From assembly GCA_030059665.1 (NCBI GenBank), contig JANVYR010000001.1, positions 576,001 through 640,000 of the forward strand: 64,000 nucleotides of DNA, written 5' to 3'. Within the stretch, counting starts at the first letter, position 1, and each line of letters starts with the position of its first letter. This document shows, piece after piece, positions 49,493 through 53,557 of the stretch. Position numbers and translations under genes: made by a program. Under the pieces are notes generated by a model. It searched no databases and had not been told where the DNA came from. It saw nothing but the letters and a program-made list of their open reading frames with translations. The DNA is from Candidatus Calditenuis fumarioli (lineage in GTDB: Archaea > Thermoproteota > Nitrososphaeria_A > Caldarchaeales > Calditenuaceae).

Positions 49493-49571
49493 CTGACCAC
49501 CCGGCTTCCGGCGACCCGCCGCCTCCCAACCAAATAACGTTGATATCTGCCCTGCACCAAAGCGATCGGGG

Positions 49572-49760
49572 ATGGCGCAGCAGGTGGTCTACCAGTGCGT
49601 CAGGTGCGGAACCCTCTTCGAGCGGGACATCGGTCCGAGGGCTGCGCAGCTCAGGTGCCCCAACTGCGGCTACCCGGTTATCAGGAAGCCGAAGCCTAAC
49701 GTGGCGAAGCTCATCGTCACCTCCCAGCTCTCGGAGGAGGTGAAGCTGTTCTACACCTGA
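49572..49760 (+). CDS. rpoP: RNA polymerase subunit Rpo12 (P)
   Basis: Y.C.RCG...RCPNCGY.VI.KP. Confidence 0.85.
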   Translation: MAQQVVYQCVRCGTLFERDIGPRAAQLRCPNCGYPVIRKPKPNVAKLIVTSQLSEEVKLFYT

Positions 49761-49939
49761 TCCTTTGGCTCTCCCTTCCTGGAACCCTGAAGTCGTCTCG
49801 TGTCGCGCTCGCAACCGCCACAACTGTCTATGAACCCGAGGGCGGATCGGTCTTTCGGCGAGACATCCGGGTCGCCCAGTATCGTGAAGAAGCGTTTTTC
49901 CGGTGACCGAGCTGGTGAAATTGCGGGTCCCGGTTCATC

Positions 49940-50362
49940 ATGGAAGGCGAGCTCAGACCCGAGATCGAGGACTGGTTCTATGAGGCCTGCGTCGACCTCG
50001 AGGAGGCGGAGGACGCCCTCAGCAGGGGAAGGAACAACTGGGCCTGCTTCGCAGCCCAGCAGGCCGCAGGGAAGGCCCTCAAGGCAGCGTACCTCGCGAT
50101 CAAGAGGAGGCGCTTCCCTAGGACCCACGACCTCCTCGAGCTTTACCTCGAGCTCCGGGGTGAGATCTCAGTCGGTGACGAGGGGAAGATCGGGCTCCTC
50201 TCGTCCTTCTACGAGCTGTCGAGATACCCCAACGCGGGCGTCAGGAGACCCTCCAGGTCGATCTCAAGCGACGTTGCCCGGGAAATGCTTAACCTCGCTA
50301 AGGAGGTAGTGAGGACGGTCGGTGAGAGGATTGGCCTCGCGTGCGGCCCCCAAACTCGGTGA
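49940..50362 (+). CDS. HEPN domain protein
   Basis: WACF.AQQAA.KALKA, RTHDL, Y..SRYP. Confidence 0.9.
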   Translation: MEGELRPEIEDWFYEACVDLEEAEDALSRGRNNWACFAAQQAAGKALKAAYLAIKRRRFPRTHDLLELYLELRGEISVGDEGKIGLLSSFYELSRYPNAGVRRPSRSISSDVAREMLNLAKEVVRTVGERIGLACGPQTR

Positions 50363-50690
50363 CCTCGGTTTGCCCGAAGACGTGAGGAGGAGGATCGAGA
50401 GGGCCGTCGAGGTGATCAGGAGCGTCGCGGCCGACGCGAGGGTTCTGCTCTTCGGGAGCTTCGCCCGAGGGGACTGGCTCGAGGAGAGCGACATCGACCT
50501 TCTGGTGATATCCGACGCGTTCGGGGGGATGAGCTACCTCGAAAGGCTCGAGAGGATAAAGAGGGCCCTTCTGGAGAACGGCCTCCCGAGGGTCCACGTG
50601 ATACCGCTGACGTGGGGCGAGCTTGAGGAATTGGGTGAGAGGAGCGTCGTGATCAGCGACGCGCCTGAGTATGCCGTGGAGGTGGTCTGA
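50322..50690 (+). CDS. Minimal nucleotidyltransferase (MNT), HEPN-MNT pair
   Basis: LFGSFARGD..EESDIDLLVIS. Confidence 0.9.
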   Translation: MRGLASRAAPKLGDLGLPEDVRRRIERAVEVIRSVAADARVLLFGSFARGDWLEESDIDLLVISDAFGGMSYLERLERIKRALLENGLPRVHVIPLTWGELEELGERSVVISDAPEYAVEVV

Positions 50691-50773
50691 TTCCGAGATC
50701 TTCTGCTGTGTTAGCCCTCAACTTTCCTCGCGAGAACGACGAGTTCAGCCGAGAAAACGCGAAATCTCCGTTG

Positions 50774-50875
50774 CGGGCCCGGTGGGACTCGAACCCACGA
50801 CCTTCCGGTTAACAGCCGGGCGTTGAAGATATTGGGGGAATACCCCAATATACTCTTCCGCTGAGCTACGGGCCC
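50774..50875 (-). tRNA. tRNA-Asn(GTT) with a 30-nt non-canonical intron at 24/25 (50823-50852); CCA not encoded
   Basis: Spliced product is a 72-nt cloverleaf. Relaxed BHB: GAAG/CTTC helix, bulges AG|T and AA|C, intron hairpin ATATTGGGG/CCCCAATAT. C27-A43 mismatch. Confidence 0.92.
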
Positions 50876-50902
50876 ACGTACTGATTATTTTCCATCTTAG
50901 CA

Positions 50903-50908
50903 TTTAAA
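50903..50908 (-). promoter_or_regulatory. TATA box for the reconstituted tRNA-Asn
   Basis: TTTAAA about 28-33 nt upstream of the mature 5' end, inside the AT-rich element. Confidence 0.55.
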
Positions 50909-51055
50909 CCTTAGTAGACGAAAGAAGACACCGTTCGGATGAGCGTCAGCTCCGTCGATCTCTGCTCATCCTCATCGCTTACCGAAATCACATGATTAAC
51001 TCGATGATAAGAAAGGGAGTGATTTCAGTTAGCAGATGGTTGTCAGTATTGTTTA

Positions 51056-51170
51056 GGGGAGCCGGAATGAGGACCTCAGGCATTCGGCTGTTAATTGCTT
51101 CATCCCCCCTCGCGGTAGGTCTGCATTCGGCGCTCTATTGCCCAGGTCCCCATCCGGCTCTTTCCCCCGT
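51056..51170 (-). ncRNA. Dual-spacer guide RNA (tigRNA/bridge-RNA-like)
   Basis: Long hairpin with a GCGA tetraloop and a symmetric 13x13 loop. GCAA-N9-GAATGC occurs twice, and the spacers match the empty tRNA-Asn site on opposite strands. Confidence 0.85.
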
Positions 51171-51172
51171 TC

Positions 51173-51949
51173 TCACCTCTTCATCGCTTTTAGTGTATTC
51201 TTTACGGTTTTCAGGACCTCCCGCACCTCTTTGCCCTTGATCTTCTGCCTTCCCTTCACACTAATTGTCAGCGATTCTGTCGCATCTTTCAGCATTTTGT
51301 TGTACTTTCCGTCGTTCGGATAGTAGTTACCAGTATAGGTCAATATCTTCCTCAGCCCTAAGCTGAAGTCCACGTACAACAGCAGTTGGACCAAAGCTAC
51401 CCTGCCGTAGAGGCATTTGCCTGAGCTGATCCTCAATCTCTCCGATATCTGATGGATCGGTAGGAAGCTTCTCGCCAGTGCGTCTATCTCCCTGGCCAGC
51501 TTATCTTTCCGCCTCCTCAGGTGATTGATGAGATGTCTGTAGTGTGCCCTGGTCTCCTCATCGTCCGCTTCGCGTGACAGTTGCTTTACAAGTTTCAGGT
51601 GCGATTTCGTCGTCGTGTATTTGTGCAGAAGCCTTCTGACCTCCAGCTCCTTTCCTGTGAGCTCCCTGAAGAGGTGTTCCGGTATTCTAGCTAGGGCCCT
51701 GGCGTCGTCCTCGTCGCTCTTCGTCTCCCTGTACTTCTCTATGACATCAGTCCTCCTCAGGTAGAATATCCGGACGCCTCTAGCTAATAGCTCCTCGAAC
51801 TCCCTAAATCTGCTCGGTAGTATCGCATCCACGTACAGCTCGTCTCCGGCCTGAGCGGGTATGTCGCTGAGCTTCCTGAACCTCTTAACGACACCGTCGG
51901 CCACTACCACGTGATCCTTCCTCCAGTGGACGTCGGCGTAGATCTTCAT
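51173..51949 (-). CDS. Compact IS110/TasR-like protein: RuvC-like D6/D41/D79/D82, coiled coil, Nop/Tnp-like C-terminus
   Basis: IYADVH, YVDA, KSDEDDA (the KxDxxDA motif), YTG..YP..GKYN.MLK. AGGTGA SD precedes the ATG. Confidence 0.8.
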   Translation of the reverse strand: MKIYADVHWRKDHVVVADGVVKRFRKLSDIPAQAGDELYVDAILPSRFREFEELLARGVRIFYLRRTDVIEKYRETKSDEDDARALARIPEHLFRELTGKELEVRRLLHKYTTTKSHLKLVKQLSREADDEETRAHYRHLINHLRRRKDKLAREIDALARSFLPIHQISERLRISSGKCLYGRVALVQLLLYVDFSLGLRKILTYTGNYYPNDGKYNKMLKDATESLTISVKGRQKIKGKEVREVLKTVKNTLKAMKR

Positions 51950-52118
51950 ATCACATCACCTGCATAACCTGCATGAACGTCACCGTCAGCAAGTCATATG
52001 ATGGCGATCTATATCTGATCGTAATAGAGAAGGCAGGAGAAGCAGGGATTGATGTTAGGAACGTTGTGCGATATGTGTAGAGGATCGATCCTTCCATATC
52101 TCAAATTAACCTCCAACT

Positions 52119-52148
52119 CCGGGCGCTCTACCGCTGAGCTACGGGCCC
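52119..52148 (-). pseudogene. Orphan intronless tRNA-Asn 5' half (positions 1-31)
   Basis: GGGCCCGTAGCTCAGCGGTAGAGCGCCCGG is identical to the spliced tRNA-Asn 5' half except one D-loop base (T vs A), then breaks off into AT-rich sequence. Confidence 0.9.
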
Positions 52149-52155
52149 TTCTCCG

Positions 52156-52215
52156 GGGGCTCCGCCAAGGCTGAACTCATCACCAAGCAGCATTCACCTC
52201 CCCGGTCATCGCCCC
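52156..52215 (-). ncRNA. Candidate box C/D sRNA
   Basis: GGGGC/GCCCC terminal stem, C-like GATGA, C' GTGATGA, D-like CGGA. Guide TTCAGCCTTG is complementary to the conserved archaeal 16S CAAGGCUGAA. Confidence 0.4.
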
Positions 52216-52306
52216 GTCAAGGACGAATCACCTATCACTTCAACTTAACCGTCCAAGCCAGGCAGGGGAACCGGTTTAAACCCGTAGGGCACAACGGGCT
52301 GCGGGA

Positions 52307-53557
52307 TTGGTCATCTACGCGGTGACGTGGGCGCAAACACCTGTTCACCACGCCCGCCACCACGACGTCATGCTCTCCGCCGCGAGGGCCTGGGGGAGGT
52401 TCGAGCTGCTCGTCGACCGATCGCCGGTCACGCCGGACGTCTTCGCGGAGGAGAAGCCCAGGTCTGCGGTAACGGTCCTGTACTCGGGCGAGAGGCCCGT
52501 CAAGGTCACGAGGCGCTCGGTGGTGGTCGAGCTTACGCCGAGGGCCGCGGAAAGCAGCGTTCGCGACCCCGAGTTCTTTCTGAGGGTTGAGGTCTGCGAA
52601 GACGGCATCCGTGTCGAGACCGACCACTTCTCCTCGGTTCCGGCACACGCGGTCCACTGCGGCGTCGCCTGCCTCCTCCCCTTCCCAACCAGTTCGGTTG
52701 GACCATTCCGTCTGATCCGCAGGCTGCCTCCGTTCACGTCGGCGAGGATCGACGCGGAGGGGCTCTTCACGGTCACCGAGAGGGCAGAGAACGTCGAGAA
52801 CGTCGTCAACCCTGAAGCTCTCCTGCAGGACCTCACCGAATCGATCTCGAGGAACGTGGGAAACAGGTGCGCGATCGCCTTCTCCGGAGGGCTCGACAGC
52901 GCGGTCCTGCTCTCGCTCATCGCCTCTACCGGGAGGAAGGTGCTCGCGGTGACGGTCGGGATGAGGGGGTCGGAGGACGTGAGGAGGTCGACCGCTGTGG
53001 CTATGGAGATGGGGGCAGATCACGTGGTCTGCGAGCTGGACGAAGAGGAGGTGCGAGACCTCTCCGCTTACCTGAAGCGCGTCCTTGACCTCCGGAGGCC
53101 CATGGACCTCGCTCTGGGAGTCATCTTCCACAGGGTCGCGCTCGAGTCGGCGAGGAACGGGTTCAGGCAGCTGATCTCCGGACAGGGAGCCGATGAGCTC
53201 TTCGGGGGATACGCGAAGTACCTCAGGGCCTACAGGCAGCACGGACCGCGCGGCGCGGAGCTGGAGATGCTCAGTGACCTCGAGGAGCTCTGGGGGTGGG
53301 GGATCGTGAGGGACTTCAACGCCGCGGCCCTCGGAGGCTGCCACCTCACGCTGCCGTACCTGAGCAGGAGGGTGATCGCCCGTGCCCTCTCGGCGGGGAC
53401 GGAGCTGAAGGTCGACGGCCAGCGAAGGAAGCTCTTGCTGAGGGCCATCGCCCGTGAGCTCGGCCTACCGGGTTCCGTCGTGGAGGGTGAGAAGAAGGCG
53501 GCGCAGTACGGGAGCAAAGTCGAGCGGGCGGTGAGGAAGGTCCTCGGGATGAAATGA
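52307..53557 (+). CDS. Asparagine-synthase-like protein
   Basis: AFSGGLDS, SGQGADELFGGY.KY, LPYL, K..LR.IA, KKAAQYGS. Confidence 0.85.
   Translation: MVIYAVTWAQTPVHHARHHDVMLSAARAWGRFELLVDRSPVTPDVFAEEKPRSAVTVLYSGERPVKVTRRSVVVELTPRAAESSVRDPEFFLRVEVCEDGIRVETDHFSSVPAHAVHCGVACLLPFPTSSVGPFRLIRRLPPFTSARIDAEGLFTVTERAENVENVVNPEALLQDLTESISRNVGNRCAIAFSGGLDSAVLLSLIASTGRKVLAVTVGMRGSEDVRRSTAVAMEMGADHVVCELDEEEVRDLSAYLKRVLDLRRPMDLALGVIFHRVALESARNGFRQLISGQGADELFGGYAKYLRAYRQHGPRGAELEMLSDLEELWGWGIVRDFNAAALGGCHLTLPYLSRRVIARALSAGTELKVDGQRRKLLLRAIARELGLPGSVVEGEKKAAQYGSKVERAVRKVLGMK

Follow-up and report, generated by a model that had tools for sequence, protein, structure and literature searches.

The sole tRNA-Asn gene of Candidatus Calditenuis fumarioli, a hot-spring archaeon, is occupied by a selfish element of about 1.3 kb, which encodes a 258-aa protein and a stem-loop RNA with two short guides, one in the sense of the tRNA and one antisense to it, that jointly match one contiguous 19-bp site of the uninterrupted gene. 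Among relatives of this RNA the guides change together with the tRNA, and congeners that lack the element hold the site intact. In our explanation, to which we give an even chance, a mobile element of Caldarchaeales (Aigarchaeota) would be guided by RNA specifically to tRNA genes and would spread by nuclease-triggered homing. A dual-guide RNA and a RuvC-like protein that recognise opposite strands of the empty tRNA site of the element itself had been proposed in an earlier sequence-only reading, and this proposal is supported by guide-target co-variation, by empty loci and by the TasR/IS110 fold of the protein.

All features lie on the minus strand of positions 50774-52148 of the window (the whole stretch of 64,000 nucleotides analysed), and on re-reading the sequence we found the orphan half, leader, ORF, RNA, TATA box and intron-bearing tRNA-Asn exactly where the sequence-only reading had placed them (Table 1). 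The GC content of the element is 50% vs 63% for the window, and ARAGORN called the element as a 1,303-nt 'intron' at tRNA position 31. It is flanked by a 7-bp direct repeat, CGCCCGG, at 52125-52119 and 50822-50816, so its boundary is ambiguous inside the repeat. The orphan half is identical to the tRNA-Asn of the congener G026:C17 over 30/30 nt, with a syntenic upstream flank, and it holds the intact guide-1 site. The leader showed no conservation among the three copies in the C. fumarioli genome. The T-rich tract behind the RNA is likely the archaeal terminator of a joint ORF-RNA transcript, and a CCC(C)T-rich tract of like kind follows the RNA in most family loci. The TATA box precedes the start of the rebuilt tRNA, with its end at a distance of 27 nt and its centre at about 30 nt, and other family loci have a TATA-like word at the equivalent place.

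Table 1. Features of the element and of the interrupted tRNA-Asn gene (positions in the window)
Feature	Position	Strand	Basis or remark
Orphan 5' half of original tRNA-Asn(GTT)	52119..52148	minus	GGGCCCGTAGCTCAGCGGTAGAGCGCCCGG; tRNA positions 1-31
Inserted element, 1,303 nt	50816..52118	minus	comparison with G026 empty site
AT-rich 5' leader	51950..52118	minus	sequence only; ORF promoter presumably inside
ORF, 258 aa	51173..51949	minus	sequence
Stem-loop guide RNA	51056..51170	minus	at or just after ORF stop codon
Guide 1, UAGAGCGCC	51129..51137	minus	= TAGAGCGCC; tRNA sense strand, positions 20a-28
Guide 2, UUAACAGCC(G)	51085..51094	minus	reverse complement of tRNA positions 29/30-38 (anticodon stem-loop)
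T-rich tract 3' of RNA, CCCTTTCTT	51009..51017	minus	sequence
TATA box TTTAAAT for rebuilt tRNA, element-borne	50902..50908	minus	sequence
Rebuilt tRNA-Asn(GTT)	50774..50875	minus	Rfam tRNA 47.2 bits; contains 30-nt insert
Replacement 5' exon, element-borne, tRNA positions 1-24	50853..50875	minus	sequence
Intron, 30 nt, tRNA position 24/25 (D arm)	50823..50852	minus	bulge-helix-bulge scan
Exon 2, host-derived 3' part, tRNA positions 25-73	50774..50822	minus	Rfam tRNA match; identical to G026 gene

The replacement 5' exon differs from the original by a single change, A for T in the D loop. The intron forms a canonical bulge-helix-bulge (GAAG/CUUC helix, bulges AG|U and AA|C, 9-bp inner helix) and divides the guide-1 site 5+4 in the rebuilt gene; an intron of the same position and kind is present in at least 13 family loci. 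No other tRNA-Asn occurs in the ARAGORN tRNA list of the genome. In an Rfam scan of 49500-53500 the tRNA alone passed, with sR60, sR58 and Plastid-ycf2 far under threshold. Logan contigs of metatranscriptome X20 cover 50774-50888 (unspliced tRNA) and 51725-51877 (a piece of the ORF), for which DNA carry-over is possible, and those of X24 cover the tRNA ends only. No contig lies over the guide RNA, which speaks neither for its transcription nor against it. Hot-spring metagenomes of 11 studies contain the locus.

The RNA folds with a minimum free energy of -55.9 kcal/mol (z = -3.7). Its outer stem pairs 51168-51139 with 51082-51056, and around an inner hairpin (51125-51096) lies a pseudo-symmetric internal loop that reads GCAA-N9-GAAUGC on either side; the family consensus structure is backed by compensatory pairs. 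Guide 1 matches both the orphan half and the G026 empty site at 9/9 positions and, from its sequence, would pair with the bottom strand of the target. Guide 2, a 9-mer TTAACAGCC at 51094-51086 that extends to 10 nt (TTAACAGCCG), matches the rebuilt tRNA and the empty site at 10/10 positions and would pair with the top strand. Because of this tenth nucleotide the two guides cover the entire 19-bp site TAGAGCGCC-CGGCTGTTAA (= TAGAGCGCCCGGCTGTTAA) contiguously. Of the two 9/9 spacers, one target base apart, that had been reported before, the matches were thus exact, and the apparent gap disappeared in the longer guide 2.

The two 9-mer matches are beyond chance, as the family makes clear. A covariance model of the RNA (R1) found 33 relatives in 11 genomes, and co-variation was analysed in 26 related RNAs from 11 genomes, in which the scaffold is constant and variation is confined to two windows. 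The second window, corresponding to guide 2, is the exact reverse complement of positions 30-38 of a downstream tRNA in 17/26 loci, where the matching tRNA lies 120-340 nt downstream of the RNA; 2000 permutations averaged 1.6 and never exceeded 6, controls (sense, reversed, complement-only) gave 0 matches, and 4 further loci matched with one mismatch. The first window (guide 1) tracks tRNA positions 20a-29: its 3' half agrees with tRNA positions 25-29 at 83/105 positions (permutation mean 53, maximum 70 in 5000), and against orphan 5' halves it fits 9/9 in two loci and 8/9 in three. At L060 guide 1 fits the orphan but fails to fit the rebuilt exon. With its one constant scaffold the family targets at least 12 tRNA species, and the covariation of spacers and targets that homologues had been expected to show is therefore present for both guides. 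Several loci count against our explanation, namely 5/26 RNAs with no matching tRNA within reach, L066, which adjoins the wrong tRNA, L059, whose rebuilt tRNA has no intron, and L056, where guide 1 does not fit its own tRNA.

An intronless empty site, predicted earlier by joining the orphan half to the tRNA 3' half, proved to be real: G026:C17 has a syntenic, intact, intronless tRNA-Asn with the exact 19-mer. Congeners without the element likewise have intact intronless tRNA genes that contain the target at 19/19 positions for Asn (syntenic), 19/19 for Lys(TTT) and 18/19 for Thr(GGT). Within the element's own genome no intact target was found at ≤1 mismatch. The family occurs in 32/76 genomes of the class, with up to at least 32 matches per genome. 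For copy 2 of C. fumarioli, an orphan half of tRNA-Thr(GGT) was not found in the 91%-complete assembly. Two apparent leads were rejected: joints skipping about 1,320 nt in the DNA run X2 were tRNA genes of other organisms aligned by their conserved ends, not an excised or empty form, and a CRISPR spacer at C1:362,1xx resembling the copy-2 intron (11-mer plus 4) was a chance match to a loose pattern.

The AF2 model of the 258-aa protein (pLDDT 96) comprises a RuvC-like domain (D6, D41, D79, D82), a coiled coil (about 99-159) and a Nop-like RNA-binding domain (about 160-258). In structure comparisons with Foldseek and VIA-align, TasR (9mty_B) was the best match (VIA-align Z 14.8, rmsd 4.6, 238 aligned over residues 1-258; sequence identity only about 9-12%), TasH gave Z 13.3 with rmsd 2.4 over residues 98-258, and its Nop domain was also matched by sequence profile (E = 6e-5). 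The family conserves D6, D41 and K77-x-D79-x-x-D82, so that the D-D-D-D RuvC tetrad of the putative nuclease is kept. No Pfam family matched the protein even at E ≤ 10. The homodimer model scored 0.68 vs 0.05 for the best of 3 controls, passing a mark that 20/30 solved homodimers and 1/23 monomers reach; the runs agreed in at least 91% of contacts, with partner pLDDT at least 88 and an interface of coiled-coil residues 110-147, and this pass may reflect likeness to the solved TasR and Nop5 dimers.

The same fold is found in the IS110/IS1111 bridge-RNA and seekRNA recombinases (Durrant et al. 2024, PMC11208160; PDB 8wt6, 8wt9, 9t56), and the likeness of the protein to IS621/ISCro4 (Z 12.6-13.0, 248 residues aligned) nearly equals that to TasR. 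This suggests a rather unlikely alternative, a single-loop bridge recombination in which an IS110-like RNA-guided recombinase or strand transferase would join an excised circular copy directly to the 19-bp site in the tRNA gene; its single guide loop would read all of the target and part of the donor junction. The acidic, DEDD-like tetrad stands in the K-S/T-D-x-x-D-A pattern, which we take to be nearer IS110 than published TasR and have counted against our own explanation. Like IS110, the element is mobile and has a non-coding RNA with an internal loop, whose 5' side equals the top strand left of the site and whose 3' side is complementary to the top strand right of it. The RNA lies 3' of the gene, as does the seekRNA of IS1111-type elements. 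The product resembles att-site integration, given the tRNA-derived direct repeat at its flanks; at five loci the inferred donor junctions agree with the target over 5 nt left and 2-6 nt right of the guide centre, and the high copy numbers per genome suggest active transposition.

Bridge recombination nevertheless meets several difficulties. The serine nucleophile loop of IS110 is missing: when the C-terminal parts were aligned by MAFFT with those of a canonical IS110 of the same class (about 9% identity), the family showed a 9-residue gap and lacked a conserved Ser at PSERSSGG, and no alternative nucleophile is conserved, with no invariant Ser, Thr or Tyr in residues 160-258 of the family and Y216 in only about 60% of members and deleted in copy 3. 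(An hhalign comparison of the family alignment with one canonical IS110 returned a 16-column match, which is meaningless.) PF01548 and PF02371 had no match in the protein at E ≤ 10, and PF02371 was absent from the whole genome, while the same search found canonical IS110 in G028 and six control genomes. IS110 RNAs have separate target and donor loops, whereas here there is a single loop without a donor-binding loop, and model R1 found no second guide unit per locus in 28 loci, except for a reverse-strand echo of the same unit. Left junctions differ between lineages: orphan halves end at tRNA positions 27-35 (six loci), at no fixed distance from the guide centre, a variability that we counted against homing as well. 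We also looked, following the TasR cleavage rule, for a crossover at one fixed point or for a target duplication of 9 bp; left and right repeats agreed at 4-8/9 positions, a result compatible with staggered cuts at 24/25 and 33/34 but no proof of them. The family differs from IS110 systems further in that its guides measure 9-10 nt and abut, and in that guide and tRNA target are particular to each lineage, with the gene rebuilt.

Insertions of this kind have been known since 2012, when one in the tRNA-Thr(GGU) gene of Caldiarchaeum subterraneum was described (Sugahara et al. 2012, PMC3293823). The description includes an orphan 5' fragment, a rebuilt tRNA, intron gain at 24/25 and multiple copies per genome. 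This insertion belongs to the same element family: its ORF 'b' (813 bp) is P0004 and is 43-45% identical to the protein of the window, and we located its guide RNA (locus L047/L021, TGGAGCGAC / TTACCAAGC), which fits tRNA-Thr(GGU). That paper classified the ORF as a generic 'DNA recombinase' by SVMProt, proposed pNOB8-type attP/attB integration, and describes neither RNA, guides nor an IS110/Tas link (PMC3293823). The sequence-only reading knew of no description of the combination; the element itself, with its orphan half, rebuilt tRNA and 24/25 intron, was already in print, and only its RNA-guided part appears undescribed. On the published model the element would be a pNOB8-type plasmid remnant placed by a conventional integrase (attP x attB), with the RNA matches incidental or leftovers of att sites. 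It accounts for the orphan half, for the rebuilding of the tRNA and for the gain of an intron; however, the 1.3-kb element has no tyrosine or serine integrase, its only real ORF having the TasR/IS110 fold, and the two matches face opposite ways within a structured, conserved scaffold and in 17 loci or more follow the tRNA, behaviour not expected of leftover att homology. We consider this origin very improbable. Integrative elements of the SSV/pNOB8 type share the tRNA duplication, which here is interrupted by an intron, and the present element has no tyrosine recombinase.

An action at the RNA level was weighed too, with a C/D-box-like or antisense sRNA, held by a Nop5-like scaffold, that would modify, process or control the tRNA transcript, or else with a catalytically silent RNP that would repress the intact gene. 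Four points speak for it: the antisense orientation of guide 2 to the anticodon stem-loop, a further likeness of the C-terminal domain to Nop5 (Z 7.7-7.8), the words GAUGA and CUGA in this copy, and the repressor activity of dead TasR and TasA proteins (bioRxiv 10.64898/2026.09.09.750476). Guide 1, however, has the same sense as the tRNA, so pairing with it is impossible, and in L060 and in this window it fits the orphan or empty DNA site and not the rebuilt spliced tRNA; moreover, other family members do not keep the CUGA word, the RuvC acidic residues are conserved, and no Rfam C/D family rose above threshold. The same points (unconserved C/D boxes, a sense guide 1 and the modest Nop5 score) set the element apart from the box C/D sRNP (Nop5-fibrillarin-L7Ae), and a role of this kind has in our view only a slim chance of being right.

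We therefore return to nuclease-triggered homing. The protein would be a RuvC, coiled-coil and Nop-domain enzyme of the TasR/IS110 superfamily that, as a symmetric dimer, probably binds a single stem-loop RNA, whose pseudo-symmetric internal loop would display the two guides of 9-10 nt. Guide 1 would pair with the bottom strand over tRNA positions 20a-29 and guide 2 with the top strand over 30-38, the two jointly reading one contiguous 19-bp site that is present only in the uninterrupted, intronless tRNA gene. By occupying this site the element would disrupt the gene and yet keep the host alive through the supplied promoter and the new 5' exon, and the spliceable intron at 24/25 would protect the rebuilt gene by halving the guide-1 site. 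We infer that an RNP forms, pairs with DNA and cleaves it, and by our own estimate the most likely route of spread is homing, in which the RNP would cut empty alleles, whether on further chromosome copies or on DNA entering the cell, and the element would be copied in by repair from the occupied allele, with the conserved tRNA halves as homology arms. One C. subterraneum population holds occupied and empty alleles with >98.5% flank identity (PMC3293823). Under the 'C-5' cleavage rule of TasR, counting from the first guide base as +1, the bottom strand would be nicked at tRNA 24/25, precisely at the end of the element's intron. Homing alone does not explain how a lineage comes by a new pair of guides and, with it, a 5' exon that matches.

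TasR is an RNA-guided double-strand nuclease with two spacers on opposite strands, which biases plasmid inheritance (PMC12045711). The TIGR-Tas systems to which it belongs (Faure et al. 2025, PMC12045711; PDB 9mty; TIGRFinder preprint 10.64898/2026.09.09.750476) share with the element the RuvC, coiled-coil and Nop architecture, the TasH Nop profile, a predicted coiled-coil dimer, box-like words (GCA ... UG) and stems flanking each spacer, and, as far as the sequence tells, an RNA unit with two 9-10-nt spacers, within the 8-12 nt of TIGR-Tas, for opposite strands of a contiguous site. They differ in that TIGR-Tas has a tandem array of repeated units beside the tas gene, lies in phage or CPR genomes and has published functions without mobility, whereas the element has a single unit, is itself a small mobile element, has a known target in its own empty insertion site in a tRNA gene, and brings a replacement tRNA exon and an intron. 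In function it is analogous to the TnpB/IscB omega-RNA nucleases (IS200/IS605) and to intron and intein homing endonucleases, selfish nucleases directed at the element-free allele whose site is destroyed by insertion. The RNA architecture of TnpB/IscB is unrelated, and in the element two short guides would read both strands; and in contrast to intron and intein homing the gene is repaired by a carried exon and a host-spliced BHB intron, not by self-splicing.

TIGR-Tas was discovered in 2025 without natural targets or a clear role, and here a close structural relative has an unambiguous target in dozens of loci. As this target is the vacant insertion site of the element itself, the finding points towards a native function in mobility or in biasing inheritance; if true, this would be the first Tas-like system of known biological role (RNA-guided homing or integration), and would provide a mechanistic origin of disrupted archaeal tRNA genes. 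The mechanism is testable and addresses an old puzzle, that of non-canonical tRNA introns, orphan fragments and split tRNAs. It also bears on the idea that introns shield tRNA genes from integrating elements, as here the element brings the intron that breaks the guide site. Further, we lean slightly towards the wider view that the family is a thermostable, single-guide system of natural origin, with a protein of 258 aa, which inserts or cuts DNA under RNA programming. On this view it would have diversified to enter most Caldarchaeales tRNA genes and would be the direct cause of non-canonical 24/25 introns, of orphan halves and, where copies have recombined, of split archaeal tRNA genes. In its features it lies between IS110 and TasR, with an IS110-like acidic motif but no serine loop and with one loop instead of two or an array, and such intermediate features bear on the kinship of RNA-guided recombination, cleavage and snoRNP-type modification. 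A protein of 258 aa with a single RNA of about 90-115 nt, which would read 19 bp without an obvious flanking motif and comes from a thermophile, is a compact candidate tool. In the literature searched, which covered few subscription journals, no report was found of tRNA genes as targets of Tas-like, IS110-like or bridge systems.

Other RNA scaffolds of the family (L024, L026, L028, L030) have visible variable guide windows, with no targets found within 1.5 kb; a 10-mer match of L028 was compatible with chance. Downstream of L004, a distant paralogue (35% identity), lies an RNA of another kind, with one 11-mer match 950 nt away.

The features that the sequence-only reading had placed on the minus strand of the window were all found in the sequence and the RNA fold where it had put them, both guide 9-mers exactly as given. 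That reading had left one target base between two 9-nt matches; the matches stood and the gap did not, as guide 2 matches one base further. With that base, guide 2 reads TTAACAGCCG, and together the guides span 19 bp without a gap, TAGAGCGCC-CGGCTGTTAA. Over its 1,303 nt (52118-50816), the inserted segment has a GC content of 50% vs 63% for the window, and the 7-bp repeat CGCCCGG lies at both flanks. The interruption of the rebuilt tRNA-Asn, the gene restored downstream of the element, lies at tRNA position 24/25 in a textbook bulge-helix-bulge motif (4-bp helix GAAG/CUUC, 3-nt bulges AG/U and AA/C, 9-bp inner helix), and from its sequence a normal D stem would be expected once this intron is spliced. 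Since the genome holding the window (G000) has no other tRNA-Asn gene, intron removal is needed for the cell to live.

Features of the element in the window
Feature	Position	Strand	Evidence
Orphan tRNA 5' half (left over from the original gene), GGGCCCGTAGCTCAGCGGTAGAGCGCCCGG	52148-52119	minus	sequence
AT-rich leader, 169 nt	between orphan half and ORF	minus	sequence
ORF, 258 aa	51949-51173	minus	sequence
Strongly folded RNA, beginning at the ORF stop codon	51170-51056	minus	MFE -55.9 kcal/mol, z = -3.7
Guide 1, TAGAGCGCC	51137-51129	minus	sequence
Guide 2 9-mer, TTAACAGCC	51094-51086	minus	sequence
T-rich tract	after folded RNA, before TTTAAAT box	minus	sequence
TTTAAAT box	50908-50902	minus	sequence
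Complete tRNA-Asn(GTT), 30-nt interruption at 50852-50823	50875-50774	minus	sequence

Within the element, an 8-bp hairpin, GGATGAGC...GCTCATCC, with GAUGA and CUGA words (50937-50971, minus strand) lies downstream of the guide RNA and ahead of the tRNA promoter; this hairpin is absent from the other two copies. Directly upstream of the orphan half, 52155-52185 (minus strand) shows faint similarity to a C/D-box sRNA (Rfam sR60, 21 bits vs a gathering score of 50), and its words GATGATGAGTTCAGCCTTGG are also kept upstream of the intact tRNA-Asn in the related genome G026.

Four family copies were present in G000, three close (100, 87, and 75% protein identity) and one distant (35%); the RNA scaffolds of the three close copies are nearly identical except in two windows, each matching the tRNA that follows its copy. 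A covariance model built on nine RNAs and searched in 76 genomes of the class matched 33 RNAs in 11 genomes, and 26 of these were aligned for co-variation statistics. The consensus is GGGCAA-[guide 1]-AAYGC-hairpin-GCGAU/GCAA-[guide 2]-AAUGC, with 96% scaffold pairing vs 31-43% when partners were slid. The exact reverse complement of guide 2 occurred 120-340 nt downstream in 17/26 loci (one mismatch in four more), always at tRNA positions 30-38; guides permuted among loci gave 1.6 matches on average and never more than 6 in 2000 permutations, and sense, reversed, and complement-only controls gave 0 matches. Guide 1 corresponds to tRNA positions 20a-29, and its last five bases agreed with the five bases preceding the guide-2 site at 83/105 positions (53 on average and at most 70 in 5000 permutations). 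Compared with the orphan half up to 1.5 kb upstream, guide 1 matched 9/9 in the window and L060, and 8/9 in L069, L055, and L071; in L060 the D arm differs between the orphan and the element-borne exon and guide 1 fits the orphan, indicating that guide 1 matches the original gene. The targeted tRNAs include Thr(GGT), Met, Asn, Lys(TTT), Lys(CTT), Ala(TGC), Leu(CAA), Tyr, Arg(GCG, CCT, TCG, CCG) and one with a UCA-like loop. The first reading had proposed looking in homologues for co-variation of the two guides with the insertion site, and both guides do co-vary with it.

Five of the 26 RNAs had no matching tRNA in the available sequence, guide 1 of L056 does not fit its own tRNA, the rebuilt tRNA of L059 has no intron, and the L066 RNA adjoins the wrong tRNA, as would be expected if copies recombine. 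L066 (G007:C2), L073 (G007:C9), and L059 (G006:C39) have identical Lys(TTT)-guide RNAs; one adjoins a rebuilt tRNA-Met, probably a chimera from recombination between copies, and one an intronless tRNA-Lys to which guide 1 has two mismatches. The orphan tRNA-Lys half of L003, the Lys copy in G000 (G000:C2:493409-493447), has the sequence AAGAGCGGCCGGCTTT; at two positions it agrees with neither the guide nor the native genus gene (AAGAGCGACGGGCTTTTAA), and it resembles the tRNA-Lys(CTT) anticodon stem, which could reflect decay, gene conversion or escape from targeting. Contigs from hot-spring metagenome runs X2 and X4 carry the window's RNA scaffold with guide 2 altered at four positions (window 51085-51104) to fit a tRNA-Thr(TGT)-type anticodon loop, so more guide variants circulate in the same communities.

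The G000 assembly comprises 1.57 Mb in 3 contigs (91% complete), and no copy of the protein family was found in the six other representative genomes of its genus. The intronless empty tRNA-Asn locus that the first reading had suggested seeking in related genomes exists in G026 (contig C17), where a syntenic locus with a homologous upstream flank has an intact, intronless tRNA-Asn holding exactly TAGAGCGCCCGGCTGTTAA. Likewise, the guides of the Lys(TTT)-targeting paralogue (AAGAGCGAC / UUAAAAGCC) matched intact tRNA-Lys(TTT) of G022 and G023 at 19/19 positions, and those of the Thr(GGT)-targeting paralogue (UAGAGCACC / UUACCAAGC) matched tRNA-Thr(GGT) of G027 at 18/19. A scan of G000 itself gave no site with one mismatch or fewer for the Asn, Lys or Thr target. 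In two genomes of the genus without the element, tRNA-Asn (L043, G025:C10; L044, G023:C15) has a 15-nt insert, GCGCCCG/ACCACATGGGGCGAC/GCTGTTAA, at position 30/31, the centre of the 19-bp guide target; this insert may represent a footprint or an intron with a protective role, and tRNA-Asn of G027 has an insert in the variable region instead, leaving the target intact.

The 258-aa protein matched no Pfam family, and an exhaustive profile-free search gave 81 relatives, of which none is characterised and one is C. subterraneum H1UCX7. The AlphaFold2 model of the protein (31-sequence input, pLDDT 96) has an RNase-H/RuvC-like domain (1-97), a pair of long helices (99-159) and a C-terminal domain made of helices, and matched TIGR-TasR (9mty, Z 14.8, 238 residues aligned), TasH (Z 13.3, C-terminal 160 only), the IS110 bridge recombinases IS621 / ISCro4 (Z 12.6-13.0, 248 residues) and Nop5 (Z about 7.7); the family sequence profile matched the TasH Nop domain (E = 6e-5). 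The family conserves D6, D41, and K77-S-D79-x-x-D82-A, in which D6/D41/D79/D82 form a putative D-D-D-D version of the DEDD tetrad. The loop bearing the IS110 catalytic serine is absent from the family. PF02371 was detected neither in the protein nor in G000, and was found by the same search in G028 and control genomes. Aligned to one canonical IS110 protein of the class (at about 9% identity), the family has a 9-residue gap and variable residues at the serine loop PSERSSGG. A homodimer through a coiled coil (residues 110-147) was predicted with a score of 0.68 vs 0.05 for the best control, passing a mark reached by 20/30 solved pairs and 1/23 single chains, and runs agreed in at least 91% of contacts (partner pLDDT at least 88); because TasR and Nop5 dimers are solved structures, this pass may show likeness only. 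The modelled symmetric dimer would fit the pseudo-two-fold RNA loop (GCAA-N9-GAAUGC twice) and the match of the RNA covariance model to its own reverse strand.

Sugahara et al. 2012 (PMC3293823) described the same element family at the C. subterraneum tRNA-Thr(GGU) locus, where the insertion measures 1,868 bp and includes a repeated region called 'a' as well as ORF 'b' of 813 bp. In their account, a 5' fragment is left as an orphan, the rebuilt tRNA has gained an intron at 24/25, each genome has six to seven copies, and empty and occupied alleles stand side by side with flank identity >98.5%. They reported no RNA and proposed a pNOB8-like plasmid with integrase-mediated attP x attB integration. 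We found that the guide RNA of this locus (L047/L021, UGGAGCGAC / UUACCAAGC) matches tRNA-Thr(GGU), and its orphan matches guide 1 at 8/9. The TIGR-Tas papers (PMC12045711; bioRxiv 10.64898/2026.09.09.750476) cover guides with two spacers, units shaped as stem-loops, TasR dimers and cleavage, call natural targets and biological role unclear, and do not mention tRNA genes; our full-text literature search found no paper joining TIGR-Tas systems and the tRNA-gene element. Thus, co-variation, empty sites and fold support the earlier proposal of an RNA-guided, tRNA-targeting system, whereas its view that the combination was undescribed does not hold for the element itself, known since 2012; only the RNA-guided nature appears new. 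The element belongs within the IS110/TIGR-Tas superfamily and resembles both in its mode of reading DNA, and it lacks one defining feature of each: TIGR guide units stand in an array, which the element does not have, and IS110 has a catalytic serine and a second loop, of which it has neither.

With anatomy, fold, guide-target co-variation and empty sites established, we propose that the protein dimer would hold the RNA while the two guides invade, on opposite strands, the 19-bp site, which would be present only in an intact, intronless tRNA gene. At the occupied locus the orphan retains the guide-1 half only, and in the rebuilt tRNA-Asn gene the intron divides that half 5+4, and the element would therefore not target itself; the host splicing endonuclease would remove the intron, so the host would keep a working tRNA. 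For movement, we favour nuclease-triggered homing, with roughly even confidence, because the best structural match, TasR, is a hydrolytic double-strand nuclease, which biases inheritance of the target, and because the conserved tRNA halves on either side could serve directly as homology arms. Direct RNA-guided recombination by a single-loop bridge is a serious rival that we consider possible but rather less probable: the acidic motif is IS110-like, the product resembles att-site integration, and around the guide centre the inferred donor junction is target-like, but the serine nucleophile defining IS110 chemistry is missing from the family, which also argues for homing. TasR cuts on the 5' side of the base that pairs with the fifth base of the guide (TIGR-Tas papers); with the first guide base as +1, this rule would place the bottom-strand nick at tRNA 24/25 and the top-strand nick at 33/34, a numerical coincidence with 24/25 as the exact element-intron/host-exon boundary in every type-1 locus. 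The orphan 3' limits (tRNA positions 27-35) are compatible with such nicks and too imprecise as proof.

Other loci differed from this arrangement. L032 (G004:C2, about 1025-1420 in ORF orientation) belongs to the same protein family and has a second RNA scaffold, CCGG-UAUGAC-[guide]-hairpin-UGUC-[guide]-CCGG, with mutually overlapping guides CUGCUUCGUAAC and GCUCUUACGAAC that cover both anticodon-loop strands; the element is oriented opposite to tRNA-Val(TAC) and introduces a whole foreign tRNA-Val, while the 5' half left behind as an orphan is cut at 38/39. The distant paralogue L004 (G000:C1:325048-325800, 35% identity) has no adjacent tRNA, and the structured RNA that comes after it is GC-rich and of a different kind; the paralogue appears to lie inside a larger integrated element, which has small zinc-finger-like ORFs. 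Outside the window, a CRISPR array with repeat GAATCTCGCGAAGAGAGTTGAAAG lies at about G000:C1 362,080-362,300, and tRNA-Arg(TCG) (G000:C2:429497-429603), which has no adjacent element, carries a different short D-arm insert and a second intron, perhaps left by an earlier event.
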